A DNA stretch of 64,000 nucleotides from positions 34,172 through 98,171 of the forward strand of contig JAZSOG010000011.1 of assembly GCA_045536845.1 (NCBI GenBank), written 5' to 3'. The stretch comes from Kiritimatiellia bacterium (GTDB lineage Bacteria; Verrucomicrobiota; Kiritimatiellia; RFP12; UBA1067). This document shows positions 6,178 through 45,369 of the stretch, one piece after another. Position 1 is the first letter of the stretch, and each line of letters starts with the position of its first letter. The notes under the pieces are model-generated. The model ran no database searches. It saw only the letters and a program-made list of their open reading frames with translations, and had not been told where the DNA came from. The translations under genes and the position numbers were made by a program.

Positions 6178-7884
6178 TTATCGGATTATGATAATCGTAC
6201 CACTGCTACTCTTTGTCAGCTGGAGTTCGTAGTAGGTTACGCCGTCCTCTTCCACCTCAACATTGTATTTTGCCTTGTAGCCGGAAGTTACGCTGTCAAA
6301 TGTGCCCGTCACGGCATCGACCGTGCGCATGACGGTCCAAGTCCCCTGCTTGACCTTCCCACATTCGATGACATCAATGTTGCCACCTTCGATTGTGACA
6401 AAGCAGCGGTATTGCGTCGTTCCGGAGGTGGTGACCATGGTCGAAGTCCCATCCGGGCGCACTGTCACCACAAGATGGGAACCGGGCTTGATCACCAACT
6501 TGTTATAGCAGCGAAGGTCCATCGCACAGTCATCAAACCTGAGCGATCCCACGCGATAGCCATCATAGGAGAGCCCGCCCGGCACCAGATATCCGTTCCG
6601 GCCAACTACACAGCTCTTGTTGTCGCAGCTGGCGAAATCGGCATCATCGCCCAGCCATAGTTTTCCATTGAACTTGTCCTTGCTGGTGACAACGGAGTTC
6701 CCGGCGATTCCACGAAGATTGGCCGTCAGGTTGTGGTCGCTGAAATAACCATTTCCAATCCAGTTGCCGTATCCTGTGTCGAGGATCAGGTTCGTAGCAT
6801 TTGCGATGCTGGAGGAGAGCCGCTGGCGCGCGCGATAGACGCCAAAGAACTTGGACATATCATCCCTGGAAATCGGCGTTCTGTTGTAGTCGGGCAACCT
6901 ATAGTCGAACACCGGCTTCAGCGGGTCTGTGTTCCAGGTCGTGTCGAGCGTCACATTGAAGTGCTCCTTGTCCGCGCCTACGCCGTTGATGTAGAAGAAC
7001 TGGTCGCACACCTTCACGGTTCCGTTCGATATCACACCGCAATACACCCAGTTTCCGTTGCGACGAGGCCGGATGACGCCCGACTTGACCGTCAGCGTGT
7101 GGCCGTTGAGGTCGAGCGTCGTCCCATTGTGAATTTTCAGCGCGTTGATCGTCACGTCATCGGTCAAAGTTACACTACTTGAGGCATTGGACAGATAGAC
7201 GCAATCGTTCTCCCCGGCAGACATGATATCGTCGATAACATAGTCGGCGTCACCGGCTTCGATGAGCCTGCCATCTGCCGACAGCTTCAAGATCTCGCAG
7301 GGCCCGCCATTATTCGACGTCGCGACAAATTGCGGAGCAACGCCGTTGTATGTTTTCACAGAACTTGTGTCCGTGATGGTGAAAGTATTGGGGCTCGTTT
7401 CAAGAACCGCGCAGGCACCCATTGATTCGAACTTCCCGAACGTCGATCCCGACTTGCAAACGAGCTTCGGACATCCCTCGCCAAGGATCAACTTGTCGGC
7501 ATTGACCGTCTTCCATGCCCCAGACGCCGATACATTCCCGCTAAGCGTGAGGCTCTTAAACGTGAAGTCGGCGTCAATGGTCACCGCAATGTCCTGCGAC
7601 TTGGTCATCGAACTTTGTATGACCACTTCGTCATCAAAGCCAGGCGCCACGGAAGCTGGCGAGCCGTCAACCAACCAATTAGTCGGCTCCGACACATTGC
7701 CAGACGCAATGTTTGTATTCCATACGTATGTTTCCGCCAACGAGGGCACGACGAAAAGAAGCGCGGCAATAGCGCAAAGCGAGGATTTCATGATAGTCTT
7801 CATGGCTGTATTCATGAGTGTTTTCATTTTGATACTCTCGGTGTAGTTTTTCCCTTCACCACGCATTGTATCAAATTCCAGCAT
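6178..7884 (-). CDS. secreted beta-helix repeat protein (autotransporter-associated beta-strand-repeat-like), C-terminal tail ...SSSGTIIIIR; paralog of 9308..11224
   Basis: Signal peptide MKSSLCAIAALLFVVPSLA (several possible Met starts between 7884 and about 7800). The ETYVWNTNIASGNVSEPTNWLVDG motif and LNGHTLTVKSG are shared with the 638-aa ORF and with the giant proteins. Lower GC than flanking DNA. Confidence 0.75.
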   Translation of the reverse strand: MLEFDTMRGEGKNYTESIKMKTLMNTAMKTIMKSSLCAIAALLFVVPSLAETYVWNTNIASGNVSEPTNWLVDGSPASVAPGFDDEVVIQSSMTKSQDIAVTIDADFTFKSLTLSGNVSASGAWKTVNADKLILGEGCPKLVCKSGSTFGKFESMGACAVLETSPNTFTITDTSSVKTYNGVAPQFVATSNNGGPCEILKLSADGRLIEAGDADYVIDDIMSAGENDCVYLSNASSSVTLTDDVTINALKIHNGTTLDLNGHTLTVKSGVIRPRRNGNWVYCGVISNGTVKVCDQFFYINGVGADKEHFNVTLDTTWNTDPLKPVFDYRLPDYNRTPISRDDMSKFFGVYRARQRLSSSIANATNLILDTGYGNWIGNGYFSDHNLTANLRGIAGNSVVTSKDKFNGKLWLGDDADFASCDNKSCVVGRNGYLVPGGLSYDGYRVGSLRFDDCAMDLRCYNKLVIKPGSHLVVTVRPDGTSTMVTTSGTTQYRCFVTIEGGNIDVIECGKVKQGTWTVMRTVDAVTGTFDSVTSGYKAKYNVEVEEDGVTYYELQLTKSSSGTIIIIR

Positions 7885-7960
7885 TTTCGCTTGCTATTTC
7901 ATCCACAAGTTATTGCCATTTTGCAGACAAATGGCGCAGCACTTGCGCCGCGTTTTATGC

Positions 7961-9280
7961 TCATTCCAGCGGCGCACCGGCAATCGGCGACGACGAAGCG
8001 ATGACAACAACGAATCCAATAATGGCCTCTTTGTCGGAATCGCTCTCGCTGCCCTTCGAGACAACATCAACGCGGAGTCGGCAAATCGTCTCGCGCTCGC
8101 GGTTGCGCGCTTCATAGACAAGGAAGCGCCCAGTCGCAGTCGTTGTCGGAACTGTCAGCACCTGATCTAGCCCGATGGGATTGAACGTCGGCATGTTGCC
8201 GCAATACCAGTAGAGGTTGGTGTCAGAGACATTCACGGGGACAAGCGTGTACTTGAGCTTGCGTGTCTCGCCAGGATACATCTTGATTTCGTAGCGGCTG
8301 TACTGGTTATTCCATGTAAGCCCCTTGTTCGAGAGCGTCGCGGAAGTCGCCTTGACATAACTTGCCTTCTCCGCGTCGATCTGGGCCTGCGTCTTGTAGT
8401 TCGCAGGGATCGGCCCTGCCTGGATGAGTCCGTGGCCCCAAACCTTCGATGGCCCGTCGGAAAGCTTTTCACAGTTCGCCTTGAGAATCTCGTAAAGCTC
8501 GTCGCGCGTGAGATTCGGCTTCTGCTGCAAATAGAGCGCGCAGATCGCCGTCGCCATCGGCGCGGCGAAGGACGAGCCGCCATTCGTGCCCGTCGCGCCC
8601 GTGGCGCTCGTGTAGAGCGGAACGTTGCTGCCGAACGCCGCAAATTCCTTCGCCCAGTTGTCGTTGAGCCCGGCAGACGTGCGGTCTCGCTTGATCCCTG
8701 CGATGTTGATCACGCCGTCAATGTCCTGCGGAAAAGAAAGCGTCTCGTTCGGCGCATTGCCGCCGGCCGCCACAAGAATAAGTCCCTGTGCGAGCATCGT
8801 GCGGATCTGCTCGGTAGCCCACGCGAGTTGCTGCTCCGTGTAGTCGAACGGTGTGTAGCCGCCGCTGAAGTTGACAACGCGGCAGCCGTTCGTGAAGCAC
8901 CACCAGATGCCGTTGATGTCGTCCTCGAAGTCCCTTCCGTTGTAGGCGTAGAGCGTGCAGTCGGGCGCGATGCCGAACTTGTCGGACTTGATGATCGAGG
9001 CGACGCCGAGTCCGTGTGACGCAGTCTGCGACGTATCGCCACCTAAGACGTCAATCGCCATGTTCGTGACCGAGCCATTTACAATTGGGCGAATCCCCGT
9101 GTCGACCATGCCGACCTTGACGCCCTTGACGGTGAAGCCCTGGACGAACGCGTTGGTCACACCCAGCTCGCTCATATACCACGCCGAGGCGTCGTAGGTT
9201 GGAGCACCCGCCGCAAGCGCTGCTGACATTGCGAAGACGAACGGCGCGATGGAAGCAAGCAGAAGACGAGCGTTTTTCAT
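7961..9280 (-). CDS. S8 family (subtilisin-like) serine peptidase with signal peptide and C-terminal hydrophobic segment
   Basis: Catalytic triad contexts are present: VKVGMVDTGI (Asp), ASHGLGVASII (His), NGGSSFAAPMATA (Ser). Oxyanion Asn lies in VAAGGNAPNE. N-terminal signal MKNARLLLASIAPFVFAMSAALA. C-terminus ...EAIIGFVVVIASSSPIAGAPLE. Confidence 0.85.
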   Translation of the reverse strand: MKNARLLLASIAPFVFAMSAALAAGAPTYDASAWYMSELGVTNAFVQGFTVKGVKVGMVDTGIRPIVNGSVTNMAIDVLGGDTSQTASHGLGVASIIKSDKFGIAPDCTLYAYNGRDFEDDINGIWWCFTNGCRVVNFSGGYTPFDYTEQQLAWATEQIRTMLAQGLILVAAGGNAPNETLSFPQDIDGVINIAGIKRDRTSAGLNDNWAKEFAAFGSNVPLYTSATGATGTNGGSSFAAPMATAICALYLQQKPNLTRDELYEILKANCEKLSDGPSKVWGHGLIQAGPIPANYKTQAQIDAEKASYVKATSATLSNKGLTWNNQYSRYEIKMYPGETRKLKYTLVPVNVSDTNLYWYCGNMPTFNPIGLDQVLTVPTTTATGRFLVYEARNRERETICRLRVDVVSKGSESDSDKEAIIGFVVVIASSSPIAGAPLE

Positions 9281-9307
9281 GGCATCTACACCTTGCAGTG
9301 CTTGACC

Positions 9308-11224
9308 TTAGCGGAGCGAGATTCGCGTGCCTACGTTCTTCCGCGAGACGACAACGGCGTAGGAGCCATCCTCCTGCTGGACGTCATATTGCACACGGAA
9401 GCCCTGCGTGACGCTCGCGAACTTTCCGGTGCGCATCCCTTCGTGATACTTGATGATCGGATACGTAGCGCCAAACGCGACCTTGCCGCCAGTCGTGACG
9501 GATAGCGCGCCTGCAAGCGAGACGGAGAGGTATTTGCCCTCGACCTTGGTTCCCGATGCATCAAGGCAACCGCAGGTGCCGTCGGAATTGATGGACGTCA
9601 TAAACGTTCCGCCCTCCTGCATCAGGAACGCGCGAAGCATCATGACGTTGAACGCATGTTCCATGTAGGGCATACGAATGGAACCACGACGGCCGCCGTC
9701 GTAGCCGACGAGCCCGGGCGCGAATACGCCCTTGTTGCCAACCATCACGGAGCAATTCACCGTCCCGTTCGCGACGAGCGCCACATCGTCGTCCGACATT
9801 TCGCCGAGCCACACGTTGCAGTTCCACTTGTTCGCTCCGTTCCAGATGAAGTTGATCTCGCCGTCGCCGGCCAGACCTCCAAAGTTGGCCTTGCGCTCCG
9901 AGTTCTGCGAACTCAGATTGCTGTTGCGCAACTCAAGGACAGCTTTCGGCGCCTCGAAAGACGACTGCAGGTAATAGGGCTTGCCCATCGGCGTCGAAAA
10001 GACGCCCGTGAAGCCAGCATACTTGGACTTGACCGCCCAGCCACCGCCCTGGTCCTCATGGACCAGCATCGGTGTAAGGACATCGCTGACGCCCTCTGTT
10101 TCAAAGTCGACCTGCATGCGCACATCGGTGTTGTTCGTTCCATCCGCCAAGACATTCGGCCTGCAAAGCCGCGCCTTGCCGTTCGAAACGGTCTTGCCGA
10201 ACAATCCGCCCGATCCCTCGCGGAACTGGCCGCTTTTCACGGTCACCGTATGTCCGCCGAGATCGCAGCTCGCACCCGAGAAGAGGACGGCGTTCACAGT
10301 GGCGTCTGACGCGAGGGCCGTGGCGTTGGTGATGCAGACGTTGTCGAGCGCGGTCGCGTTCTCGAACGAGTCGAGCATGGCTTCCTGCGGAATCTTGCGA
10401 ATGACGCCGTTTGCGTCAATCGTGCAAAGCGAGTGACCATAGCGAACCCCCATGACCGACTGATTGCCGCCAGGAAGAAGGAATTGCGGACAGACCGGAA
10501 TCTGCGAACCGGGATTGTCGAGTGTATCTGTGCCGCCAATCATCTCGACGGAATTCCTGTCAACAATCGTCACTTTCCCGTCGTTGACGAGAACCGAGGA
10601 GACGCCGGAACCGGGACGAGTCTCAAGCGAGGCGAAGGAGAAGGAATAGGCGCCATTTTGGCTGTAAACCCGCCCGGGGCCGCCCTGGAGAATCAGCTTT
10701 CCAAACACCTTGCCATCCTCCCAGCCGGAGTAAAGACATCCGCCGTCCACGAGCAGAATCTCGGTCGTTCCGCTGTTAGCGGGAAACACCTGACCGCTGC
10801 CGACGATTGCAAGCTGCTTGAGATTGGCGAGGTCCGTGATCTTCCCGTCGACTGTTATGTTGTCAAAGACGAGCGTACCGCCGCCGGCGCCCGCAAGCTT
10901 GGCATTGTTGTTGTTGACCTTGAGCGTGTAGCTCTTCGAAGGTCCGGGCGTGCGGAAGACGTGCTTGCCGACGGACGAGACAGTAAGGCCGTCGAGGGTG
11001 ACGCTCTCCGAAAGCTCGATGAACGAATCGGCATCGCCGACGACGACGCTCGACCCTTCGCCCGGAACGCCCGCGGCACCCGCGTCCGTGGTGGCCCACA
11101 TCGTGGAATCGTTCCATGAGCCGACGCCTCCCTTCCAAGTGTAGGCAGCGGCGTCCGCCATCGCGGCGGGCACGCCGAAAACAATCGCTGCAAGTATTGC
11201 GATCAAGGCACGAACAGTTGTCAT
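9308..11224 (-). CDS. secreted beta-helix repeat protein, C-terminal tail ...NVGTRISLR; paralog of 6178..7884
   Basis: Signal peptide MTTVRALIAILAAIVFGVPAAMA. AAYTWKGGVGSWNDSTMWATTD and LGGHTVTVKSG motifs. C-terminal region FASVTQGFRVQYDVQQEDGSYAVVVSRKNVGTRISLR aligns with FDSVTSGYKAKYNVEVEEDGVTYYELQLTKSSSGTIIIIR. Confidence 0.8.
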   Translation of the reverse strand: MTTVRALIAILAAIVFGVPAAMADAAAYTWKGGVGSWNDSTMWATTDAGAAGVPGEGSSVVVGDADSFIELSESVTLDGLTVSSVGKHVFRTPGPSKSYTLKVNNNNAKLAGAGGGTLVFDNITVDGKITDLANLKQLAIVGSGQVFPANSGTTEILLVDGGCLYSGWEDGKVFGKLILQGGPGRVYSQNGAYSFSFASLETRPGSGVSSVLVNDGKVTIVDRNSVEMIGGTDTLDNPGSQIPVCPQFLLPGGNQSVMGVRYGHSLCTIDANGVIRKIPQEAMLDSFENATALDNVCITNATALASDATVNAVLFSGASCDLGGHTVTVKSGQFREGSGGLFGKTVSNGKARLCRPNVLADGTNNTDVRMQVDFETEGVSDVLTPMLVHEDQGGGWAVKSKYAGFTGVFSTPMGKPYYLQSSFEAPKAVLELRNSNLSSQNSERKANFGGLAGDGEINFIWNGANKWNCNVWLGEMSDDDVALVANGTVNCSVMVGNKGVFAPGLVGYDGGRRGSIRMPYMEHAFNVMMLRAFLMQEGGTFMTSINSDGTCGCLDASGTKVEGKYLSVSLAGALSVTTGGKVAFGATYPIIKYHEGMRTGKFASVTQGFRVQYDVQQEDGSYAVVVSRKNVGTRISLR

Positions 11225-11352
11225 TTCATCTCCCTCTTGTTTTTGCTTTGAGGAGGATTTCCTCCCGACGGCAGAAATTATATTTTAAATTCCGCCGCCG
11301 TAGTTTCATTTTCGTCTACAATGTTTTTCGAAATCAAATCATAAATGGCAGG

Positions 11353-11390
11353 CAGAAAAAACAAGGAAGCGCGGCACATTTGCCGCGCCC
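11353..11390 (-). terminator. Rho-independent terminator after the 1013-aa glycoside hydrolase gene
   Basis: Minus strand reads GCGCGGCA-AATG-TGCCGCGC (perfect 8-bp stem, 11369..11388) followed by TTCCTTGTTTTTTCT. Confidence 0.75.
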
Positions 11391-11445
11391 CATTGTCCTA
11401 CACGATCTACACGGCTCAAAGCCGAGATCGCATATTCGGGACAAA

Positions 11446-14400
11446 TTATTCCGCCTCCTCCAAACGGAAGTTGCGGAAGGCAAGGCCGGAGTGCTCGGCC
11501 GGCATCATCTGGAACTGCACGGCGATCGAGATGATCTTGCGCATATGGTCCGGGACTGTTCCCTTGTCGATGCCGATCCAGACGGTCTCCCATGTCTCGG
11601 GGTCGTTGTCGGTGCGATAGGCCCAGCCGCCGCGCTTGTACATCGGAACGCGCCACCCGCCGAAGGCGAGCTTGCCGTTCTCGTCGCGTCCGTTCAGCTT
11701 GAGCTGGGGCGTCGCGTGGTCATGGTAGTTTCCGTCCGCGTCGGGGAGGCGGTTCATCTCAAAGTAGAGGCGGCAGTACTTGCCGGGCTCGACAGGGATG
11801 GACTCGGCGAGGTCCGCGTTGCCACAGCACCAGCTGCCGGCGGTCTCGTCGAGCGCCACGTTCCATGTTCTAGTCGCCTCGTCGTAGCTCGGATGCACGC
11901 CGCGTCCGCCGCCCGTGCGGGCGAACTTCGGGAACACCACTGTCTTCGGCTCCGGCTTCTGCACGGTGATCGCCGCGACGGTCGCGCCCGGCTTGCCCGG
12001 CGCGATGTCGATCGAGACGATCTTCTTCTCGGGCTTCGGATTCGGCCACTGGCGGATCAGGTACTTGTGCCCTTCGCCGTCCTTCCAGCCGACGACCTCC
12101 TGTCCGCTCTTCGCGTCGACCTCGACGGACGTCTTGTCGTCGTACACGACGCGGTACTTCGGCGCGGCCGTGTGGGCGAAGTAGACGTACGCCGCGCGGC
12201 TGTCGACTGCTATGCCCTTGACGGGCTTGTCGACCTTGATCACGTCTTTGAACTGGTTCTGGTCGAAGCGGACGAAGTCGAAGCGCATTCCGCGCCAGTC
12301 GGTGACGCCCCACGGAATCTTGAAACCGGGGTTCTGGATGTTGGCGAATTCGTTGAGGCGCACGAACACCATGCGGTTTGGATCGACGTCGAAAACGGGC
12401 TGGCGAGCCGCGCGCTCCGCTTTCTCGCGGGCGATTTCCGCCTTGCCGAGCTCAAGCGCCTTCTCCGCGGTAAGCCCCTGATCCCACACGACATCCGACG
12501 AGCGCGGATATTTCGCAAGGACATCGGAAACATCGCCGTACACGTAGAAATGCGAGCCGCCCGAAAGAACGAGCGTGTAGTAGCCGTCCGCATCGGGCTT
12601 GAGCGGCTGGCGATGGGAGACGAGATTGCGGACACGCGGATCCGCGCCAGCGACCGACTTGTCGTCGGGGAGCGTGAAGAGGCGCACAAGTATCGGCTTC
12701 TTCGCGCCACCAGGAAGAGGCGCGGGCTTAAAGCGCACGACCGGCAGCGTCGGCGCACGCGAAGTAATCATGTACGCGTCAAGTTTGCCGCGGCGGGCTG
12801 GCGTCACTTCGATCGAGGCCGCGGCGCTTCCGTCGTCCTTGATCGCGTCCAGCATTTCGCAGCACGGCTTCACGCCCTTCTTCGCGGCCGCCGCGAGAAC
12901 GGCGGAAACCATTTCAGCCGTCGGCACCTTCTCCTTGAACTCGACGAGCGAACCGCCCTTCGCAGCCCATTCGTCGATGCGGCTGCGCGTGACGGGATCC
13001 ATCGCCGCAATTCCGGCGAACGTCAGCACATCGTAGCGGGAGAGACGGTCGGTCTCGTTGATCTGCGGCTCGAAGATCACGTCGACCGGAAGGTGCGCAT
13101 ATTCGAGCGCCTGCACGAGCGCATCGAAGAGACGGTTGTTTCCTCCGCCGCACGCGAAGGCCTCGCGCTCGTTCGTCTGGGAGAACAGCACCGCCACCTT
13201 GCGCGGAACGCCGCGGTCTCGGGGCGTAAAGAACTCGTTGACGTCCTGGATCTCGCGCTTCGCGATGCGGATGCCGAGGAGCTGGTCGGTTGCGACCTTG
13301 TAAGGGCAGAGGAAGTTGTAGGCGCTGACCTTGCCGACCTTCTTGAGCGACTCCTCGGGCCACATCCGCCAGAACTTCATGCCCTTCCACTTGCCCTCCT
13401 TCTCCTCAACCTCATGCACGGCCCGCCAGTCGCTCGGACGGCGCGACCACTTGAACATGTAGCTCACGTTGTAGCCGCGCTGGTACTGGTCAAGGAAGCT
13501 CTGGCGGATCGAGTTCGTGGAGCAGCCGACGTACATCTCAGAGTCGACGATCGGCTTGCCGTCCGCGAGCGCGCGGAGAAGATGCGCCTCGACCGCGCCG
13601 CCGTGTCCGCCCGTCGGCGCGCAGACGACTTTGAGGTGGCGGTTCGCCTCGTAGAGGTCGATGCCGCGCGTGCGCATCGTGGTCGGCTGGAAGCACGCGA
13701 GCGCATCTGGGTCGACTTTGCGGAGCGCCTCCTGGCCCTCCTTCAGCAGCGACGAGAACTTCTCCTCTACGAACTTGATGCGGTCTGCGCCCTTGAGGTT
13801 CTCAGGGGCCCGCCCCTCCTCGGAGCAGGCGGGCTCGTTGAAGAGCTCGTAGCACCAGGGCTTCCAGCCCATTGCGATCGTGTCCTTCGCGCCTTCGGTC
13901 CACATCGTCTTCCAGACGTTGCGCCCTTCCTCGGTGACGATCGAATAGGGCATGAAATGGTGCCCTCCGGGCGCCTTCATCTTCTCGTCCTTGAGCCACA
14001 GCGCGCCATGGCTCCAGGTGGACGCGGTGAAGTCCACGTAGAGCGGAAGTCCGCTCGCGATCGCGCCGGCGTACTTCTTGTCGTCGCGGCGGCGGACCTT
14101 CTGGTCGGGGTTGAACTTGTGGAACCAGTCCATCGGCGCCTCGTAGCCGATCCCGTCGAGTCCGAGCCTCTGCAGGTCGTCGTATCCGGGCATCGCCTGG
14201 TATAGCCACTTAAGATCGTCGACATAGCCGGGCGTGTCCTCGTTGCACTCGAGCTCCGTCGAGCCGTACCAGATGGTCGCCGTGAAGTAGTGCGGCTGGC
14301 CGTTGACGAGAAGGTGCCCCTCCTTCGACACGCTGAACTTCGCGGCCTTCGGATAGAGCTCGGACCGCGGGATCGCCCCGAAAGGCACGAAGGGGTCGAA

Positions 14401-14487
14401 GCCAAGTCCCTTGGGATCGAGGTATTCGTCGGCCGGAGCAACGGCAGCGGCCAAAACAGCGGAAAGTGCGATCGACAGACGTTTCAT
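11446..14487 (-). CDS. secreted glycoside hydrolase, clan GH-A TIM barrel with a GH42-like A/B/A middle domain
   Basis: Signal peptide MKRLSIALSAVLAAAVAPA. Acid/base-type motif CYELFNEP. Candidate nucleophile context IVDSEMYVG. VAVLFSQTNEREAFACGGGNNRLFDALVQALEYAHLPVDVIF resembles the GH42 trimerisation/amidotransferase-like domain. The family assignment needs an HMM search. Confidence 0.7.
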   Translation of the reverse strand: MKRLSIALSAVLAAAVAPADEYLDPKGLGFDPFVPFGAIPRSELYPKAAKFSVSKEGHLLVNGQPHYFTATIWYGSTELECNEDTPGYVDDLKWLYQAMPGYDDLQRLGLDGIGYEAPMDWFHKFNPDQKVRRRDDKKYAGAIASGLPLYVDFTASTWSHGALWLKDEKMKAPGGHHFMPYSIVTEEGRNVWKTMWTEGAKDTIAMGWKPWCYELFNEPACSEEGRAPENLKGADRIKFVEEKFSSLLKEGQEALRKVDPDALACFQPTTMRTRGIDLYEANRHLKVVCAPTGGHGGAVEAHLLRALADGKPIVDSEMYVGCSTNSIRQSFLDQYQRGYNVSYMFKWSRRPSDWRAVHEVEEKEGKWKGMKFWRMWPEESLKKVGKVSAYNFLCPYKVATDQLLGIRIAKREIQDVNEFFTPRDRGVPRKVAVLFSQTNEREAFACGGGNNRLFDALVQALEYAHLPVDVIFEPQINETDRLSRYDVLTFAGIAAMDPVTRSRIDEWAAKGGSLVEFKEKVPTAEMVSAVLAAAAKKGVKPCCEMLDAIKDDGSAAASIEVTPARRGKLDAYMITSRAPTLPVVRFKPAPLPGGAKKPILVRLFTLPDDKSVAGADPRVRNLVSHRQPLKPDADGYYTLVLSGGSHFYVYGDVSDVLAKYPRSSDVVWDQGLTAEKALELGKAEIAREKAERAARQPVFDVDPNRMVFVRLNEFANIQNPGFKIPWGVTDWRGMRFDFVRFDQNQFKDVIKVDKPVKGIAVDSRAAYVYFAHTAAPKYRVVYDDKTSVEVDAKSGQEVVGWKDGEGHKYLIRQWPNPKPEKKIVSIDIAPGKPGATVAAITVQKPEPKTVVFPKFARTGGGRGVHPSYDEATRTWNVALDETAGSWCCGNADLAESIPVEPGKYCRLYFEMNRLPDADGNYHDHATPQLKLNGRDENGKLAFGGWRVPMYKRGGWAYRTDNDPETWETVWIGIDKGTVPDHMRKIISIAVQFQMMPAEHSGLAFRNFRLEEAE

Positions 14488-14501
14488 GGCGCGAGACCCC
14501 C

Positions 14502-32607: not shown

Positions 32608-32611
32608 GCGG

Positions 32612-36933: not shown

Positions 36934-38118
36934 CTAACGTTCTTTGACTGCGCCTGCCACCCGTCTTATGTAAGAGCCGAACATCGGCACCGTGTAGGCT
37001 ACCGTACCGAGCGAAGGGGAATATATCATGCCCTTCTTGATCAAGGATCGCCGCATCATCGAAAGGGAATTTGCCGTCCTGCCCATCCGCACGGCAATGT
37101 CCGCCATCGACTGCGGCTTCTCGGGCACGCCGTCTGCCATCGCCATGAGAAACTTCTGCTCGGCAGCCGACACCCTGTCAAACCGCACCTCAAAGAAGCT
37201 CCTGTCGAGACTCTTTATCACCTGCGGCAATATCGACTTCACGTCGCTCGCCACAATCGGCGACCGCTCCGCATGCTGCCACACCTGATATCCGCATTCC
37301 TGGAGGAAGAAGGGATATCCCGCCGATGCCTTGAAAATCTCTGCAAAGGCGGCATTCTCCACTGCAATGCCATTGTCCTCGAACGGCTTCACTATGGCCG
37401 CCCACGACGCATCTTCATCCAATGCCCCAATCGGCTCGTAGACAAACATCCGCTCGGCGTATGTCTTGCTTTTCCCTACCAGCGTGCGGACCGTAGGAAG
37501 GCCGGAGCCGATCAAATACAGCGGAAGAAGCTCCTGCGCCGAACGATGAAGCGCCACGATAATGCCGCGCATAGCCTCTTCGTCCAAATTCTGAAGTTCG
37601 TCGATGTACAGACCGACCGCAGTCGAGGAAACCTTAGCAACGCGAGCTGTTGCGAGCAGTACCTGCGATAGATCAAGTTCCATGTTGCCAGACTCGCCTA
37701 TACCTCTATGAAGTTCAACCGACACGCCTACGTCGCCTATGTTGAGGGAGAACTTCCTGACAAAGTTTCCCAGAACCGCAAACGCCTCCTGGACACAGCC
37801 CTTCATCTTGCACTTGAAGTCAAGCGTGTATAAGGCCTCCTTAAGTTTCTGGGCAATATCCTCCAAGTCGCTTTTATCGCTTCTGATTTCCGATATCACG
37901 GAAATAATCCCGTTGTCTTTAGCCCGTTCAGACAGGTACTTCAAAAGAACAGTCTTGCCGACACCACGCTGGCCTATCAGCATCAAACCTCGCTCTGCAC
38001 GCTGAAGCTTCGCGCGCATCGCAACGACTTGTCCGTCCTCTATGACCTGATTCCTCCCTGCCAATTCTGGCGGCAAGTACCCAGCCCCAGGGGTGAATGG
38101 ATTTCTGATTCTGTCCAT
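36934..38118 (-). CDS. AAA/STAND-like ATPase with C-terminal winged-helix-like domain (Arch_ATPase/ORC-Cdc6-like ATP-binding protein)
   Basis: NPFTPGAGYLPPELAGR..., Walker A GQRGVGKTVLLKYL and Walker B GLYIDELQNL. The C-terminal region KFLMAMADG...MADIAVRMGRTANSLSMMRRSLIKKGMIY looks like a wHTH. Confidence 0.8.
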   Translation of the reverse strand: MDRIRNPFTPGAGYLPPELAGRNQVIEDGQVVAMRAKLQRAERGLMLIGQRGVGKTVLLKYLSERAKDNGIISVISEIRSDKSDLEDIAQKLKEALYTLDFKCKMKGCVQEAFAVLGNFVRKFSLNIGDVGVSVELHRGIGESGNMELDLSQVLLATARVAKVSSTAVGLYIDELQNLDEEAMRGIIVALHRSAQELLPLYLIGSGLPTVRTLVGKSKTYAERMFVYEPIGALDEDASWAAIVKPFEDNGIAVENAAFAEIFKASAGYPFFLQECGYQVWQHAERSPIVASDVKSILPQVIKSLDRSFFEVRFDRVSAAEQKFLMAMADGVPEKPQSMADIAVRMGRTANSLSMMRRSLIKKGMIYSPSLGTVAYTVPMFGSYIRRVAGAVKER

Positions 38119-38607: not shown

Positions 38608-41388
38608 TCACCTGGCCGCGAGCTCGTAGACCATCGTCGGGGCGTTTGCACCTTCGCCGGCGGCAATCTTGGCGGTGAAGCGGTAGACGCCACCCTCGTA
38701 GACCGCGGGAACCTGGCGGAGACGCGTGCCGTCCGACGCGACCGCCCAGACCTTGAGGCCCTTGTTTGAATTCTTCAGAGCAATCTTCGCTTCGCCGGCC
38801 GCGGCGAGATAGGGAAGCGCGCCCCAGTTCGTCATCTCCGTTCTGCCAGCGCTCTTGAACTCCGCGCCCGAGTTGAGGACGTCCGTGAGATGGAAGATCA
38901 CGACGCGCTTCGACGACGCAAGCGGCGCGCCGTCCATCGACGAGGCGGATACGCAGCAGAACGCGGTCACGCCCGAGACGGCGAGCGGACCCGCCGCGAG
39001 GTCGGACTTCTTGATCGAGCATACGCCCGCCGTGCGCGGCGTGGAGACCTTGAGCGTCCCCTTGTTGTAGTCGATCGAAAGCTCGCGCGTTTCCGAGACG
39101 CCCGCTTTGTTGAATGCGGGTATCTCGCCCTTGTTCGACGCTGTATAGATCTTGTCCACGTGCAGCGCGGGCTTCTTCCCCCCGTCCGCGACGAACGAGC
39201 CGATGCGGCAGATGTGCCCGAGCTCGGTGAACGGCAGCGGGAAGAGACCCCTCGACCACATGTCGCCGAGTCCGCCGCCGAAAGCCTCCGCCGCGGTGAC
39301 GCCGTAGGCCGCCGTCCCCTTCGCGGGCGCGGCGTCGCGGCGTCCGAAGAGTAGGACGGCCTGGCGCTCGGTGAGCTGGGAGAGCGGATCGGTTACCATA
39401 TCAAAGCCTTTCGACGGACTCGGCTTAAACATGTTGCCCTTGTCGTGACTCCACGCAAAGCGGTAGATGCCGTCCCAGTCCTGGAGCGAGGCGTAGGCGC
39501 CCATCATGAGTCCGCCTTCCGCGCGCCACTGGTTGGGGTTGCAGAAGTTCCACTCCGAGACGGTGAACGGCTTTCCGAATACGCGCGTACACGCCATCAT
39601 GATCGGCAGCGAGTACGCGGCGCTTCCGTTCTTGAGGTTCGCCTGGTTGTTGAAGCGCATCACCACGTTGCCGGAGTTGCCGTGGTAGATGTCGGCGTAC
39701 TGATGGTTGTCTACGACCTCGAGCGCCTCGCGCTCGTAAGTCTGGCCCATGTTCTCCCACCAGTTGCCGCCCGAGATGAGCGTCTTCACGCCCGCGTCCT
39801 TAAGCCGCTTCGACATACGGCGGTTCGCGTTCGCCTTAACCTCGTAAAGAAACTCGGCGAACTCCTTGCGCCTGCCGATGTCCTTCTTCTCGTACTGCGG
39901 ATAGCCCTTCCCCTTCGCCCACTCGTTGTACTTCTTGACGTAGACGTCTTCCGCACCTGACCAGACGGACGCGATGGAGTCCTCGTTGAGGAGCGTGACG
40001 AAAAGGACGGCCGGATCGTCCTTCCACTTTATCCCCGTGTATGGGTTCACGTGGTCGAAGAGTTCCATCGAGCGCTTGAACCACAGGTCCTCGGCGGGCT
40101 TGTGGATCGGGACGATCGCCTTGATGGTGCCGCAGTGAAGCGGCTTGTCGAAGCCCTCGCAACTTCCGTAGCTGCCCATCGCGTAGAGATCGAAGGTTAT
40201 GTAGACGCCCGCCTTCTTGCATGCCGCGACGAGGTAGTCGAGCTGGTCGAGACGCTGCGGAGAGATGGTCGGCCATGTACGACGGTTCCAGATGTCGTTC
40301 CATTCCTCCTTCGTGATCGTGACGTCGAGGTGGTGGAGGCGTATTGTGTTCCATCCGCGCATCACGAAGTCGCGCACCGCGCGGTCCGCTTCATCTTTCG
40401 AGAGGAAGTTCGCGCTGAAGCAGAGATTGCCGCCGACGAAGCGTCGCGGCGTCCTCTTCGCATCCTTCTCGAAGACGAAATGCCCCTCCGGCGACACGCG
40501 CGCGAAGCCGTACGCGCCCGCGGGCTCGTCGTGGCGCGTGACCTTCGAGAAGTCGAGGATCGTGCCAGGCTTGACGTCGTTCGTCCACGGGAACTTCACC
40601 CACTTGTCTCCCGCGGCGAGCTTCAGGGGCGGAGGCGGAAGCCCGAGCTTTACGCTGCCGCTCGCCCTTCCGAGCGAATCGGCGAAGACGCCCTGCACCT
40701 CGAACTCGACGGTCGAGCGCGCGGCGTTCTTCGCGTCCGGGAACTCGATGCGCAGCTCGAAGAGCTCCTTCTTGTCCTTTCGCGCGTCGGCGAGGACGGC
40801 GTTTCCGGAGACGACGGACACCCTCAGCTTCTTCTTCCCGCCCTTAGAGGCGATCTCGATGCGGCTTTTGTCACCAAGCCCCAGGAACTCCTTCCCGTAG
40901 GCCGCCGGAAGCTTCGCGCCGCCGGCCGTTCCCTCCGCGAAGTCGTTCACTGGCAGCGGGAAGCACAGGTACGCGCGCTCGAGCTTCAGCGGCGCGCCGT
41001 CCGTGGAGGAGAGCGTCCAGCGGACGTGCACCTTGGCAGCGTCGCCCTTAGTGACGTCGAAGAACTCCTCGCGGATCGCGATGCCGCGTCCGCCCGGCCA
41101 CATCTTCGCCGTGTGGAGAAGGCCCTTGCCGAACTTCGGATCGTCGACGGTGGACTTCTTGTGCTCCTTCGCGGCGTAGTCCTGCGCGGCGAACTGCCAG
41201 CCCGGGCCGAACACTATGAAGTTGACAAATCCCCATTCGACCTTGGGATCGTTCCGGATGATCCCCTCGACCTGGGGAAGCCCGCGCCCCTCAACTCCGA
41301 TCGTCGCGTACGTGTCTGCGAAAACCGCCGTAGCAGCTGACAGCGTGGCGGCCGCAACAGCCGAAACAATCATGCACCTTATCTTCAT
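38608..41388 (-). CDS. secreted glycoside-hydrolase-like protein (clan GH-A TIM-barrel type), paralog of <1..2703
   Basis: Start set at ATG 41388 (MKIRCMIVSAVAAATLSAATAVFA), preceded by GGAGGGAG. NTIRLHHLDVTI, VTLLNEDS (NE acid/base-like) and FTVSEWNFCNP (nucleophile-like) fit a (beta/alpha)8 clan GH-A enzyme. Lies 50 nt downstream of the 1303-aa gene. Confidence 0.8.
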   Translation of the reverse strand: MKIRCMIVSAVAAATLSAATAVFADTYATIGVEGRGLPQVEGIIRNDPKVEWGFVNFIVFGPGWQFAAQDYAAKEHKKSTVDDPKFGKGLLHTAKMWPGGRGIAIREEFFDVTKGDAAKVHVRWTLSSTDGAPLKLERAYLCFPLPVNDFAEGTAGGAKLPAAYGKEFLGLGDKSRIEIASKGGKKKLRVSVVSGNAVLADARKDKKELFELRIEFPDAKNAARSTVEFEVQGVFADSLGRASGSVKLGLPPPPLKLAAGDKWVKFPWTNDVKPGTILDFSKVTRHDEPAGAYGFARVSPEGHFVFEKDAKRTPRRFVGGNLCFSANFLSKDEADRAVRDFVMRGWNTIRLHHLDVTITKEEWNDIWNRRTWPTISPQRLDQLDYLVAACKKAGVYITFDLYAMGSYGSCEGFDKPLHCGTIKAIVPIHKPAEDLWFKRSMELFDHVNPYTGIKWKDDPAVLFVTLLNEDSIASVWSGAEDVYVKKYNEWAKGKGYPQYEKKDIGRRKEFAEFLYEVKANANRRMSKRLKDAGVKTLISGGNWWENMGQTYEREALEVVDNHQYADIYHGNSGNVVMRFNNQANLKNGSAAYSLPIMMACTRVFGKPFTVSEWNFCNPNQWRAEGGLMMGAYASLQDWDGIYRFAWSHDKGNMFKPSPSKGFDMVTDPLSQLTERQAVLLFGRRDAAPAKGTAAYGVTAAEAFGGGLGDMWSRGLFPLPFTELGHICRIGSFVADGGKKPALHVDKIYTASNKGEIPAFNKAGVSETRELSIDYNKGTLKVSTPRTAGVCSIKKSDLAAGPLAVSGVTAFCCVSASSMDGAPLASSKRVVIFHLTDVLNSGAEFKSAGRTEMTNWGALPYLAAAGEAKIALKNSNKGLKVWAVASDGTRLRQVPAVYEGGVYRFTAKIAAGEGANAPTMVYELAAR

Positions 41389-41457
41389 TTCTCCCTCCGT
41401 TATCAAAGCCGATTAATTCACGCTGCGGCGCTGCGAGTTCAACCACTCTGCACGCAA

Positions 41458-44400
41458 TTATCTGACAATCAACTGAAAACCGCCACCCGTCACGATAAGT
41501 TTACCGCCAGCGCCTTCAGCCGTGTCAACGAGATAGTCTGCCAGCGTTCCTTCTCCGATCTCAATCTTCGATCCCGCGGCGTATGTGCCTGGCGCGAGCT
41601 TCACGCCATTGACCTTCGCAGACCTGACCGTGAATGTCTTGCCGTTGAGATCAAGCACAGTGCCAGAGTCCATTTCGAGCACCGACATCCTGAGACCTGC
41701 GAAGAGCTTCACCCTTGCAGCCGCCTCGGTCTTGAGCGATGCCTTGCGGAAATCGTCCGTCTCGCCACCGGCCTTGACGGAAGGAATCGCCGTGAACGCG
41801 ACATTGTTCGCCGTGTTGCCGGTGTTGCGGATGACAATCGTGCCCGCACCTTCCGCCTGGTTCGCCGTCTGGAGGTAGATCGAGCCGGCGGACGAAGAGC
41901 GGTCAGCGGCAAACTTGGACGTGTAGTAGCCTTTGGCGTTGATCTTTGTCAACCAGGCATCGGAGAACGTTTCGCCCGCGCCCGTGAGGCGCACGGCGAT
42001 GCGCCCGCCGCCGCTTGAATTGCCGGAATCATCCTCAGAATAGTTGCGCGAATTGCCGTTCGCCTCAATGCGCCCAGCACCTTCAAGACGTCCGGCGGTG
42101 ATGTCGATCGATCCCGGCGCGCCGGAACGAGCGTCCGCAACGATCGGTGTCGCGCTTGCGACGCCGTCCAGCGTCAGCGTTCCGCCGACCACGAGGCGGA
42201 TTGCCCCGCCGCCGACGTTGACGCGGCCGTTGTCGGCGCCGAACGTGCCGGGATGGCGCGGGCGGAAGAACGAGTCGTAGGCAACATTCGACGTCGACCT
42301 TCCGCACTGTCCGCCATGGCAGGAGGTGCTTCCGCCGCCAACAGTCGCGGCACCGGTCGCGATGTAGCCGCCGCGGACGGCGCGCAGATACGAACTCGAT
42401 GCGACGTGCATGTCGCCGGAGACGGCAAGGCCGCAGGTTCGCACATTATTCGATGTGTCGGAGTAGAGCAGTAGCGTTCCCACGCCTGCCCCATTCGTGA
42501 CGACAAGGTTGCCGTCTAGCGCGAAGTCCTTAGGCTCGAATATCCACTTGCCGGAAATCGTGTGCGTCGCCGCGCTCGGCAGCAGGAGCGTGCCGCCGTC
42601 GACGATCAGGCCCGTTTCGTCGAGCGTGTTGCCGGTCGAGGAAACGGACGCGAGGCCGCCGCGCAGGTCGAGCGTCGTTCCGGTCGGAACCTCGAGGATG
42701 GCGTTCGCGCCGAAGACGATTTCGTCGAGGACCCACGTCTGACCCGCCGGGATGCGCGTGAGCTGGTTGGGCTTCGGGCGATATGCGTACATCCCGTACT
42801 TGTTCGTCCGGTCGCGGAGATACAGGACGCCGTTGGGCTTGAGCGGCGAGCGAACGAGAATCGTGCCGACGCTGCCGACCTTTGCGTAGGACGATACGCC
42901 GCCAAGCGCCGTAAGGTTCGCGTCCGGGAGACCGAGTTCACCGTTCGTGATGAGGACGGAGACGCGACCTCCGGCACCGGAGTTCTGGTTGGAGCCGGAA
43001 CTCGTGTTCGTGCAGTCCGCGGAGATCTTGCCCGATCCGGACAGCGTCGCGGTCTTAAGATAGACGGCGCCGCCCGAGCCGGAATAGCCGTTCCACTGTC
43101 CCCATGCGGAGACGCTGTCGGAACGGATCGAGCCGTCGAGTTGTGTACCGCCCGTGACCTCAATCCAGACCGCGCCGCCGGCAGGGGCGTTGTATGTATT
43201 GTCAGCCGCCGGACTTGAACCGACGCCGTACGGCTCGGTCAGACTGCCCCAGGAGAGTCCGCCGTCGTAGCTTCCGCCGTAGGCGCCGGCGCCTGTTCCG
43301 GAGTGAGGTCCATAGGCACCCTTGCCGGTGGCGTGGATCTGCGCGCCGGACGCGACTGCCAGGTTTCCGCCGACATCGATGCGCAGACGGTAGTAGTCTT
43401 CCTTGTTCGTGGCGTTGTGCGCCTTGTGAGTTACCTTGCCTGAAGCAATAGTCATGTCGCCGGAAACGGTCAGACAGGTAAAGCCACCCTTCTCCGGGAA
43501 TACGGTATCGACCGTGACCGTGCCGGTGTAACCATTCGTCTGCGTCCAGGAGGCGACCGTCGGCGTCGCGGCGGCGTCCCACTCGCAGTTCGCCGTCGAG
43601 AATCGCCCGTCGAAAAGAATGTTGTCGGACGCGGCAGGTGCGACGCCCTTGGACCAGTTGGAGCCTTCCGACGCGAGGCCGTCCGCCGTCGCAATCCATG
43701 TGTTGTAGCCAGCGGGGGCAGTGAGATTGACGAGCGTCAGCGTTGCAGACGTGACGGCAGGCATCTCGTAGTTACCTGCAGCAAGCGTCACGGTAATTGC
43801 GATGTCCTCGGTGACAGCGGAGTCAAGGATCGGCGCGACAAGTAGGTATCCTGTCGTTTCGCCAGCCGGTATTGTGACGGCGGTCGGTGCGTCCCATGTC
43901 GTTCCCTCGGCGGCTCCGACAGCGGAAGAGGAAATCGTGTAGTTCACCGTGAGCGGGAACGGGTCGTCGTTGGCACGCGAAACTGCAACCTTGCCGGCGA
44001 CAAGACCGTTCTCGTTCGCGTCCGTCGTCGCACCAAGAGAGAGTTCTCCCGTGTAGAACGTTCCGACGACCTTCTCGGCCGTGTCGCTGGCGTTCGTCGC
44101 AAGAATTGTCGCCTGCCAGGTCGTGTCCGCCGAAAGTCCGGAGATTGTCCATGTCGCAGAGTTTCCTTCGGCAACGGACTGCCAGCCGTTAGTCGAGACT
44201 GTCTCGCCATCCGATAGAATGTACGAGAGATCGGCGGCGTTGGCGTCCTCGGTCGCAGAGAGCGAGTAGGCGAGTGCACCAGTGCGGGAGAGGGAGACTG
44301 TTCCAAGATCGGGGGATTCGGTGTTGATGTAGAAGAACTCGAGCTCGTCGATTTGAATGTAGGAATCGCTCTCGTCCTGGTTCGCCGTAACCGCGAAACG

Positions 44401-45369
44401 ATAGGAGTCATAGGCGGTGTTGTTCTGGAACTCATAGTAACGGCTTTCGAGCGACGACCACCCAGTTTCCGACGATTGCGCGTCGAGGACGGCCCACATG
44501 ACGTCCTCCGCGTTCTTCGCCTCAAACGTCCAGGTCTTCGGCATGCGCTTGTCGTAGAAGTAGGGGGTCGTGCTCGGGCAGTACACCTTGTAGGCGTTGA
44601 CGACCGTCGGGGAGTCGAAGGTGTAGATCCAGTCCACGGTCGTGCCGCTGTGGATGGAGCGGTCGTCGTTGTTGTGGGCTGTTCCGTTGTCGAAGGCGTT
44701 TTTCGCGGGCTTCACCCAGTCGCCGGTGGTGGTCGTCGTAACGGCGCCGTTCGGATTCGTGAGATCCGTGAGGACAAATCCGGTGTCGCAGAGGAACTGG
44801 ATTTCGTAGATCTGCAGGTAGGAGTTCGAGCCGAGAATCTCCGTACAGCTGAACTTGTAGTATTCGTAAGCCGTCTCGTTTTCAAAGTGGAAAGACTTCA
44901 TCACGTCTCCGACGGGCCAAGTCACGCTCGAGCGCGCGTCAAGCTGCGTCCATGTCGAGCCGTCGTTCGAACCGTGGAAAGTCCACGCCTTCGGCGAGCG
45001 TTTGTTCGATTCATTTGCGTTTTTGATTCGAATACGGAGGATGTTGACCTTCGTCGGGGCGTTGAACTTATAGACAAGGTACATCGGATTGCTGGTCGTC
45101 TCCGCAAGCCATCTGCAGTCATCGCTGCTCCAGTTGCCGTCAAAGGCGTGATCGGCCGTGTAAGGGCTAAGCGTCGGGGATGACTCGACGACAGCACCGG
45201 CGGAGGCTGAGGTGTCGACGAGCAGTTGGTCGGGCGGCGTAGTTGCCGCGGCGCGCGCTTCGAGCGCGGCGAGCGCACACACGAGAAATGCCGCCGTTAG
45301 CGGGAATATTCCGCGTGCGAAACGCGATTTCAGAATCGAACCGGAAACTTCGGTATATTTCATTGCCAT
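41458..45369 (-). CDS. giant secreted surface protein (1303 aa): two F5/8 type C (discoidin/CBM32-like) domains, FN3-like + Calx-beta module, parallel beta-helix, C-terminal tail ...GGGFQLIVR
   Basis: Discoidin-type blocks YTADHAFDGNWSSDDCRWLAE...MYLVYKF..VNILRIRIKN...WTFHGSNDGSTWTQLD, and a second copy ..AKNAFDNGTAHNNDDRSIHSG..WIYTF. Calx-beta block VAVSRANDDPFPLTVNYTISSS. Signal peptide MAMKYTEVSGSILKSRFARGIFPLTAAFLVCALAALEARA. Confidence 0.85.
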   Translation of the reverse strand: MAMKYTEVSGSILKSRFARGIFPLTAAFLVCALAALEARAAATTPPDQLLVDTSASAGAVVESSPTLSPYTADHAFDGNWSSDDCRWLAETTSNPMYLVYKFNAPTKVNILRIRIKNANESNKRSPKAWTFHGSNDGSTWTQLDARSSVTWPVGDVMKSFHFENETAYEYYKFSCTEILGSNSYLQIYEIQFLCDTGFVLTDLTNPNGAVTTTTTGDWVKPAKNAFDNGTAHNNDDRSIHSGTTVDWIYTFDSPTVVNAYKVYCPSTTPYFYDKRMPKTWTFEAKNAEDVMWAVLDAQSSETGWSSLESRYYEFQNNTAYDSYRFAVTANQDESDSYIQIDELEFFYINTESPDLGTVSLSRTGALAYSLSATEDANAADLSYILSDGETVSTNGWQSVAEGNSATWTISGLSADTTWQATILATNASDTAEKVVGTFYTGELSLGATTDANENGLVAGKVAVSRANDDPFPLTVNYTISSSAVGAAEGTTWDAPTAVTIPAGETTGYLLVAPILDSAVTEDIAITVTLAAGNYEMPAVTSATLTLVNLTAPAGYNTWIATADGLASEGSNWSKGVAPAASDNILFDGRFSTANCEWDAAATPTVASWTQTNGYTGTVTVDTVFPEKGGFTCLTVSGDMTIASGKVTHKAHNATNKEDYYRLRIDVGGNLAVASGAQIHATGKGAYGPHSGTGAGAYGGSYDGGLSWGSLTEPYGVGSSPAADNTYNAPAGGAVWIEVTGGTQLDGSIRSDSVSAWGQWNGYSGSGGAVYLKTATLSGSGKISADCTNTSSGSNQNSGAGGRVSVLITNGELGLPDANLTALGGVSSYAKVGSVGTILVRSPLKPNGVLYLRDRTNKYGMYAYRPKPNQLTRIPAGQTWVLDEIVFGANAILEVPTGTTLDLRGGLASVSSTGNTLDETGLIVDGGTLLLPSAATHTISGKWIFEPKDFALDGNLVVTNGAGVGTLLLYSDTSNNVRTCGLAVSGDMHVASSSYLRAVRGGYIATGAATVGGGSTSCHGGQCGRSTSNVAYDSFFRPRHPGTFGADNGRVNVGGGAIRLVVGGTLTLDGVASATPIVADARSGAPGSIDITAGRLEGAGRIEANGNSRNYSEDDSGNSSGGGRIAVRLTGAGETFSDAWLTKINAKGYYTSKFAADRSSSAGSIYLQTANQAEGAGTIVIRNTGNTANNVAFTAIPSVKAGGETDDFRKASLKTEAAARVKLFAGLRMSVLEMDSGTVLDLNGKTFTVRSAKVNGVKLAPGTYAAGSKIEIGEGTLADYLVDTAEGAGGKLIVTGGGFQLIVR

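Follow-up and report, generated by a model that had tools for sequence, protein, structure and literature searches.

C-terminal sorting signals such as LPXTG, PEP-CTERM, the C-terminal domain (CTD) of T9SS (type IX secretion system) and the beta-signal of the beta-barrel assembly machinery (BAM) have each led to the finding of an envelope machine dedicated to it. In T9SS the signal is a 7-stranded sandwich (PMC10994853) with five motifs in the last 100 residues (PMC12618676). In F. johnsoniae each of the five type B motifs, including motif E on a beta-strand, is needed for secretion, and type B cargo pairs with cognate SprF-like shuttles (PMC12618676). Type B cargo remains bound to outer membrane (OM) carriers of the PorP/SprF type and is anchored at the cell surface (PMC9143113, PMC10994853). 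T9SS is described as confined to Bacteroidota/FCB (PMC11611037, PMC12398890), and the genome paper of K. glycovorans gives Sec, Tat and the type II secretion system (T2SS) only (PMC5148204). Here we describe a C-terminal tail of six secreted proteins encoded on a 64,000-nucleotide stretch of DNA of a rumen-type Kiritimatiellia bacterium (assembly GCA_045536845.1, contig JAZSOG010000011.1, positions 34,172 to 98,171), which as a whole is referred to as the window. The tail looks like an unusually short C-terminal envelope-sorting signal, not previously described.

The six C-termini listed in the original prediction match the translated open reading frames (ORFs) exactly. All six (6/6, translation of minus-strand ORFs) read G-[TFL]-x-[ILV]-x-[ILV]-R directly before the stop codon. 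The window has a guanine-cytosine (GC) content of ~60% and its real genes are mostly on the minus strand. The six genes, with their tails (coordinates including the stop codon) and the C-terminal module of genes D, E and F, are the following:

Gene A, 6178-7884, minus strand: 568 amino acids (aa), secreted beta-helix-like protein, C-terminus SSSGTIIIIR; tail and stop codon at 6178-6207, minus strand, Arg codon CGA.
Gene B, 9308-11224, minus strand: 638 aa, C-terminus NVGTRISLR; tail and stop codon at 9308-9337, minus strand, Arg codon CGC.
Gene C, 21306-24263, minus strand: 985 aa, secreted, C-terminus SMGLAIIIR; tail and stop codon at 21306-21335, minus strand, Arg codon CGA.
Gene D, 27091-32478, minus strand: 1795 aa, C-terminus GIGTVILVR; tail and stop codon at 27091-27120, minus strand, Arg codon CGC.
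Gene E, 32730-36755, minus strand: 1341 aa as annotated, C-terminus GIGFQLIVR; tail and stop codon at 32730-32759, minus strand, Arg codon AGG.
Gene F, 41458-45369, minus strand: 1303 aa, C-terminus GGGFQLIVR; tail and stop codon at 41458-41487, minus strand, Arg codon AGA.
C-terminal beta-helix module of F, 41488-41680, minus strand: LDLNGKTFTVRSAK...GTY...DTAEGAGGKLIV, directly before the tail.
The same C-terminal module, conserved, in D (~27121-27300, minus strand) and in E (~32760-32950, minus strand).

Counted by sequence comparison, the six cases are three independent C-terminal contexts (A/B; C; D/E/F), because A and B are paralogs (27% identity across 487 residues), D, E and F have one module in common (LDLNGKTLTVKSA...GTY...DTAxGAGGxLxV in the translated ORFs) and the likeness between C and D is N-terminal only. 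Protein C has an N-terminal domain in common with D and an unrelated C-terminal region, and it shares nothing with B. All of the six cases reported in the original prediction, as well as the upstream module it described in the three giant proteins (D, E and F), are real by sequence, but only three of the cases are independent. The body domains found by Pfam are DUF2341 in D, Calx-beta in E and F5/8 type C (CBM32-like) in F, and C has sub-threshold matches of the purple-acid-phosphatase-N type (27.9 and 20.2 bits, cutoff 30). No Pfam or NCBIfam match on the six full proteins falls on the tails. Sec signal peptides are present in all six (6/6, sequence reading), as had been claimed, with a basic N-terminal region, a hydrophobic stretch and an AxA-like site. 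The signal peptide of gene A probably starts at an internal Met (MKTLMNTAMKTIMKSSLCAIAALLFVVPSLA), and the true start of gene E is probably the ATG at 36713, not the upstream GTG.

The tail is far more frequent at these C-termini than expected by chance. By chance, the strict tail pattern ([GA][TFLMIV].[ILVM].[VLIF]R$) would be expected at a rate of 1.8e-4 per protein based on composition and of 4e-4 based on the internal-match rate, and the probability that at least three of the 32 window proteins match it, with the six counted as three, is 3e-8. A scan of 1128 stop-to-stop segments (60 aa or longer; window and seven related loci) picks up long tail-bearing genes or gene fragments only, and no spurious ORF matches the pattern. 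Chance or composition as the origin of the tail is ruled out by these match rates and the clean stop-to-stop scan. Inside the proteins the pattern is found 7 times in 17,337 positions; as this is about the chance rate, the tail is not an internal repeat of the beta-helix. The strict pattern is absent from the further predicted proteins of the window, in agreement with the original prediction. The closest non-match is a CE4 polysaccharide deacetylase (26031-27041, minus strand), which has a signal peptide and ends in LAHTGDTIAVR; the G-D-T-I-A-V-R ending is kept in L018 and L022, where the deacetylase also lies directly downstream of D-type genes, and it may be a divergent tail or a coincidence.

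Collection scans with narrow back-translated patterns gave four genome-contig and nine metagenome-contig loci. Every complete tail carrier has a signal peptide, after start miscalls and frameshifts are resolved. Among the signs that, according to the original prediction, would speak against a sorting tag are the occurrence of the tail at similar frequency on cytoplasmic proteins and its loss from orthologs. In ~330 kb of related loci no enzyme, regulator, housekeeping or cytoplasmic protein has the tail, and it is retained by 63 of the 65 close homologs found for the three window contexts. With the last 200 aa of F as query, the tail is found in 39 of 41 homologs (GGG[FL]x[ILV]x[VI]R, one with K); with the last 300 aa of C, in all three (P0042-44; L006 and L009 too); and with the A/B profile, in all 21, including the A homologs P0047-49 and P0057. 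The homologs are labelled Kiritimatiellae or Kiritimatiellia bacterium, or belong to rumen RUG metagenome-assembled genomes (MAGs).

A profile of the C-terminal 200 aa of D/E/F was searched against 1.84 billion representatives clustered at 50% identity, and 1170 proteins are found at E<=1e-3 and 271 at E<=1e-30. The homologs and the profile-search matches listed, out of the 1,170 clusters, make up a set of 211 sequences, and in 198 of these the last two residues are a hydrophobic one and then R, K or Q. Of the 187 D/E/F-type sequences among the matches listed, 142 end in R, 24 in K and 9 in Q; 138 have G at -7, F, T or L occupies -6, and I, L, V or F occupies -4, -3 and -2. The consensus is G-(G/x)-G-[F/T/L]-x-[I/L]-[I/L/F]-[V/I/L]-[R>K>Q]-COOH. 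The terminal R, K or Q abuts the stop codon directly, which matches the expectation for a function that needs a free C-terminus. Truncation is evident in some of the exceptions among the 211 (P0205 ends abruptly at ...SGEGG), and others are lineage variants (...GLWVFVQ, ...GSVFTFE); a terminal Q, Y or H is seen in some lineages. On L008, a metagenome contig of 67% GC, two adjacent giants (6288-10004 and 10001-17743) end in ...PGSLLEVR and, with a terminal Glu, ...RGSVFTFE, and these variants suggest lineage-specific drift of the tag.

Conservation of the tail is at the protein level, as judged from the coding sequences, because the Arg codons vary, the downstream DNA is unrelated and the GC content of the hosts ranges from ~40 to 69%. 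The window tails use CGA, CGC, CGA, CGC, AGG and AGA (A to F). A 1795-aa protein on a Kiritimatiellia contig of 39.6% GC (L028) ends in GEGTLILLR, and the 69% GC contigs L026 and L027 have the endings ...GAATVLIVK and ...GSATMLILR. An ending imposed by a DNA-level repeat or terminator is ruled out by the differing Arg codons and the unrelated downstream DNA. On the same two 69% GC contigs a tandem repeat, TIKTIKTI when read in frame with the gene, lies immediately upstream of the signal peptide of the tail gene (L026 12374-12460, L027 11415-11500); it is probably non-coding and upstream of the real start.

Comparison of the C-terminal profiles with hhalign separates the tail from what precedes it. 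Between the C-type and the D/E/F profiles only the 12 terminal residues align (RVGSMGLAIIIR vs IVTGGGFQLIVR), between the C-type and the A/B profiles nothing meaningful is aligned, and the sole element common to A/B and D/E/F is LDLNGxTLTVKS, found mid-protein and, in A and B, ~300 residues upstream of the tail. The three profile pairs rule out the tail as part of a common C-terminal domain. Further contexts are a Flg_new_2 protein ending in ...CYEGMSSGLKLIVR (L009; ...SSGLKLIVR), a Pel9A-like beta-helix/PKD protein ending in ...CYECPFQPATVIVIR (L026; ...PATVIVIR), an autotransporter-repeat protein ending in ...SPVGLMIILR (L019) and a sequence group ending in ...IVW..G[FL].[IL][FI][VL]R. On these alignments the tail is a module, appended to at least five unrelated C-terminal contexts. 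Its carriers are beta-helix, LamG or CBM32-type proteins, with weak or threshold matches to the type V secretion system (T5SS)/PEP-CTERM-associated repeat and to autotrns_rpt that are followed by neither a barrel nor PEP-CTERM. The 'choice-of-anchor' domains of NCBIfam owe their name to the sorting signals that they precede, which differ from protein to protein, and in L026 a weak match to one of them (choice-of-anchor Q, NF041518; residues 952-984 of 995, 18 bits vs a cutoff of 25 bits) stands before the tail.

The last 200 aa of F and the last 250 aa of B were modelled by AlphaFold2 with family alignments (F: mean predicted local distance difference test score, pLDDT, 85.8 and predicted template modelling score, pTM, 0.82; B: 74.9 and 0.76, respectively). 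In both models DSSP assigns no strand to the last 10 residues, whose mean pLDDT is 64. The 170 residues before the tail in F are at pLDDT 79-96 per 10-residue block, and the strands just before the tail are confident (KLIV in F, YAVVVSR in B). The C-terminal 250 aa of B are modelled as a beta-helix like that of autotransporter passengers (best Foldseek match Ssp, 8e7f, E 3.8e-3, followed by EspC and Hbp); the F model has no significant neighbour in the PDB by Foldseek. The tail itself is preceded by a Gly-rich linker (G in 61% at -9 and 76% at -7). In the 211 sequences, among the matches listed, the information content of positions -6 to -2 is 2.1, 1.0, 2.3, 1.7 and 2.5 bits; residues are hydrophobic in 99% at -4, ~100% at -2 and 85% at -3, and the polar residues S, K, H, R and Q are tolerated at -5 and -3. 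Such period-two conservation would be expected of a strand that buries one of its faces.

The tail and the T9SS type B CTD both end in an extreme C-terminal ...G-x-Phi-x-Phi-Phi-R-COOH strand (Phi, hydrophobic residue), and the cargo of T9SS is also Sec-exported, large and adhesin-like or carbohydrate-active. Bacteroidota genes for real type B CTDs, with the annotation 'gliding motility-associated C-terminal domain', were found on plasmids by tblastn, and six of them were sampled. Four of the six end in R directly before the stop codon (EMVKLIR, KGFLQLIR, KGSVTIFR and GGVMTLIR), one ends in GSITILY and one has an extension after ...INILR. The difference lies in the rest of the signal: the sandwich and five motifs described above have as their counterpart here a 7-9-residue tail only. 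The models CHU_C (PF13585), TIGR04131 and Por_Secre_tail match neither the six full proteins nor their last 60-65 residues (E up to 10); the same search gives a synthetic type B consensus 91.9 bits against CHU_C. Of the type B motifs, the other four are absent from the window proteins; a 7-stranded beta-sandwich holding the tail is absent from the F and B models, where the beta-helix-type body reaches as far as the tail, and Foldseek against the PDB gives no CTD-like match. In L013 a real type B gene has PorP/SprF directly downstream; in the window, as in the loci with precomputed Pfam annotation, no tail gene has a neighbour of this family. In these comparisons the tail resembles the terminal strand of the type B CTD, and T9SS membership fails because there is no HMM (hidden Markov model) match, no further motif or sandwich and no PorP/SprF neighbour, and because the host phylum (PVC, Kiritimatiellia) is not known to have T9SS. 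The original prediction had found no named sorting family for the tail. This agrees with the databases, since no Pfam or NCBIfam model (June 2026 release) covers the tail, and sorting-signal HMMs on the last 60-65 residues of the six proteins (E up to 10) give no match, but the close look-alike in the last strand of the type B CTD had been missed.

The consensus spacing of the BAM beta-signal is G-x-x-Phi-x-Phi, and it is read by strand pairing at the barrel seam. The tail has G at -7 and Phi at -4 and -2, and both are amphipathic terminal strands; the beta-signal, however, has an aromatic end and belongs to barrel proteins, whereas the tail proteins are beta-helices ending in Arg. In the D/E/F-type sequences among the matches listed, 175 of 187 end in R, K or Q, and the bodies are beta-helix or lectin-like. 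The contrast with the BAM signal drawn in the original prediction holds for the end, which is Arg and not aromatic; the beta-signal spacing is present, followed by an extra Arg. The barrels of the organism carry ordinary beta-signals: a predicted OM protein of 476 aa (50343-51773, minus strand; syntenic in L004), with no Pfam, NCBIfam or PDB sequence match, has the canonical beta-signal ...FRWQIDFAF.

PEP-CTERM, GlyGly-CTERM and LPXTG signals are likewise C-terminal, are found on signal-peptide proteins, often after choice-of-anchor or autotransporter-like repeats, and have a similar layout of a small motif, a hydrophobic stretch and one or more basic residues. They differ in having a transmembrane helix of ~20 residues and a signature motif, where the tail has five to six hydrophobic residues and one Arg. 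The PEP motif (TIGR02595) is absent from the six C-termini by direct reading and by HMM, and the only GlyGly-CTERM match, of the SVAGG type in E, has 20.8 bits vs a cutoff of 150 and covers residues 479-543, which are not C-terminal. The absence of a PEP, LPXTG or GlyGly motif with a transmembrane helix, as originally noted, is confirmed by both approaches. A covalent linkage of the Lpp type through a terminal Lys is unlikely, as Arg predominates. Type V autotransporters are alike in the passenger-like beta-helix body (a weak match) and in the repeat matches at or just below cutoff, but the tail proteins lack the 12-stranded translocator barrel (no autotransporter barrel domain is found on the six proteins by Pfam or NCBIfam) and stop ~10 residues past the helix. 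Concerning the type I secretion system (T1SS, RTX-type), the carriers have Sec signal peptides and there are no ATP-binding cassette (ABC) or membrane fusion protein (MFP) neighbours. PapD-like chaperones and PDZ domains bind a short C-terminal strand by beta-augmentation, with the carboxylate in a pocket. Their ligands resemble the tail in being short C-terminal strands with alternating hydrophobic residues, and differ in the penultimate Tyr of pilins and the hydrophobic last residue of most PDZ ligands; no chaperone-usher genes are present at these loci.

We propose that the tail is a beta-strand tag which docks on an OM or periplasmic partner for export or anchoring, and we give this proposal an even chance; docking, partner and outcome are what we infer. 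It is put forward because the fixed end, protein-level conservation, modularity, Gly linker, unpacked one-face strand and exported-only carriers match known C-terminal signals. The carriers would be exported by Sec and then fold as beta-helix, lectin or CBM bodies, with the tail left free behind the flexible Gly-rich linker. The tail would pair with the partner as an added strand, burying the -6/-4/-2 face, and the terminal Arg and free carboxylate may be held in a pocket of the partner. Docking would lead to translocation across the OM, to retention on it, or to both. The partner would most plausibly be an OM barrel, by analogy with PorP/SprF carriers or with an Omp85-type lateral gate; alternatively, it could be a periplasmic or T2SS component. 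On a wider and more tentative reading, which we regard as possible but would put below an even chance, Kiritimatiellia export or display huge folded proteins by a new OM route keyed by the 7-9-residue tag GGG-Phi-x-Phi-Phi-Phi-R-COOH, which would be read by an undescribed OM carrier, an Omp85-type protein or a T2SS component.

Several points weigh against the docking proposal. The low pLDDT of the tail could reflect the uncertainty of AlphaFold and not true freedom. No PorP/SprF, PorV, Omp85-type or other conserved OM gene is found beside the tail genes in the window and the retrieved loci, nor is there a recurrent secretion gene of any kind. The retrieved loci were ascertained through tail proteins and are not a proteome-wide sample, and assignment to Kiritimatiellia was made for only some of them. 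The motif was not found in the literature searched for Kiritimatiellota sorting signals, T9SS, PEP-CTERM and secretion systems. Of the terminal beta-strand tag for sorting or anchoring in the original prediction, the strand-like, extreme C-terminal and non-random nature stands; the function is one that we infer.

Two other explanations involve no transport or anchoring machine. The free strand could swap into a neighbouring copy or form a cross-beta zipper, giving oligomers, fibres or a surface matrix. The tail is indeed a typical aggregation-prone stretch (five to six aliphatic or aromatic residues and an Arg 'gatekeeper'), it is left unpacked in the monomer models, and the carriers are large adhesin-like beta-helix proteins, often encoded by tandem genes (D, E). 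We consider such self-association rather unlikely, however, as the tail occurs in at least five unrelated C-terminal contexts with varied bodies and no evident common acceptor domain, and a strictly conserved residue next to the stop would rather be expected where a dedicated receptor recognises the C-terminus. The tail could instead anchor the protein directly in the membrane, its hydrophobic residues dipping into the OM outer leaflet or the lipopolysaccharide interface and its Arg binding phosphates, with no protein partner. The very hydrophobic core (positions -4 and -2 at ~100%, -3 at 85%), the terminal R or K in ~85% of tails and the Gly linker before the core would suit this, but six residues are too short for a stable leaflet-spanning helix, and a lone strand in lipid leaves backbone hydrogen bonds unsatisfied. 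Furthermore, the period-two pattern with polar residues at -5/-3 better fits a one-sided protein interface, and the terminal Q, Y and H of some lineages speak against a purely electrostatic role, which makes a direct anchor decidedly unlikely in our view.

The remaining two explanations are based on common descent. A purely structural tail would form the final strand of the beta-helix, cap it or act as a folding nucleus, inherited in one large paralogous superfamily and without a signalling role. All carriers are beta-rich, most are joined by BLAST in one component through their body domains, the preceding strand and Gly turn could make a terminal hairpin (sequence reading), and the pLDDT of the tail is intermediate (64) and not very low. 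Against this, the regions just upstream are non-homologous between contexts, the models leave the tail unpacked, the motif is no internal helix repeat (7 matches in 17,337 positions, about chance), and structural C-termini usually differ in length, but 198 of the 211 sequences (among the matches listed) have the stop directly behind R, K or Q; we consider it unlikely. A strongly reduced but homologous T9SS signal would mean that export goes through a divergent T9SS-like translocon and carrier and that nothing but the final strand of the type B CTD is kept. In favour are the real type B endings, which are nearly identical to GFQLIVR and GTVILVR, and the T9SS cargo, which is large and Sec-exported too and in many cases adhesin-like or carbohydrate-active. 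We find it very improbable, given that neither the full proteins nor their last 60-65 residues (E up to 10) match CHU_C, TIGR04131 or Por_Secre_tail, that the four remaining type B motifs, a separate sandwich and a PorP/SprF neighbour are all absent, that T9SS is described as confined to Bacteroidota/FCB (PMC11611037, PMC12398890), and that the genome paper of K. glycovorans gives Sec, Tat and T2SS only (PMC5148204).

Whichever partner the proposed docking tag may have, its carriers lie within polysaccharide-utilisation-like loci. A right-handed beta-helix protein of 827 aa (window 45499-47982, minus strand) is found upstream of F-type genes in five loci, and a secreted protein of 932 aa without a family match (window 38608-41406, minus strand) is found downstream of them in five loci. 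The 932-aa and 827-aa flanks of F are kept in relatives (L004, L005, L019 and L021; L004, L007, L017 and L022, respectively), and the three genes look like a conserved polysaccharide-utilisation-like cassette. The CE4 deacetylase is downstream of D-type genes in three loci. Further recurrent neighbours are GH16, SASA esterases, GH2, heparinase II/III, GH84 and a HisKA_3/LuxR two-component system. The HisKA_3 kinase and LuxR-type regulator are near C-type tail genes in three loci (window 18130-20213, minus strand; L006 12535-14966; L009 4049-6894) and may regulate the C-type cassette. AAA-type ATPase genes (AAA_14/DUF4143, AAA_22/AAA_16) are found amid the giants at 4773-6083, 24525-25811 and 36934-38118, all on the minus strand. 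A secreted S8 subtilase is encoded between A and B (7961-9280, minus strand), and its top NCBIfam match, mycosin-like, is far below cutoff. The gene downstream of the B homolog in L003 has the signal peptide of the subtilase (MK..RLL.ASIAPFVFAM) and a differing mature N-terminus. No S8 gene recurs near tail genes, and the subtilase as a dedicated tail-processing enzyme is unsupported.

Genes D, E and F are also alike at their 5' ends. A leader of ~135 nt and the first ~110 nt of coding sequence have ~88% DNA identity (32359-32640, 36594-36875 and 45250-45531, minus strand), and the leader holds the element TAGAATGTCGCC...GAACGATG, repeated twice. The encoded N-terminus, MAMK[HY]TEGSGSILKSR[FL]ARG followed by a hydrophobic region, is an extended conserved signal-peptide n-region, which is also present in homologs of other MAGs (L004-L007, L017 and L021). 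An Rfam search of the window, the leader included, gives no match. The shared leader could be a common promoter or leader, or an extended signal peptide like the extended signal peptide region (ESPR).

Kiritimatiellia are abundant, little-studied polysaccharide degraders of rumen, gut and marine sediments, and the tail bears on how they put giant glycan-binding or adhesin proteins on their surface. The motif is sharply defined and modular and marks a family that comprises 1,170 or more protein clusters (50% identity), which offers a handle for finding the machinery; it also allows sequence-based prediction of the surface proteome of uncultured Kiritimatiellia. It further allows asking whether the ...Phi-x-Phi-Phi-R-COOH ending, common with T9SS type B cargo, reflects one recognition principle. 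If the wider reading of a new OM route is true, the tail would be a minimal counterpart of the ~85-100-residue T9SS CTD and among the shortest C-terminal OM sorting signals known in diderms, and a 9-residue tag of this kind would be attractive for engineered surface display.

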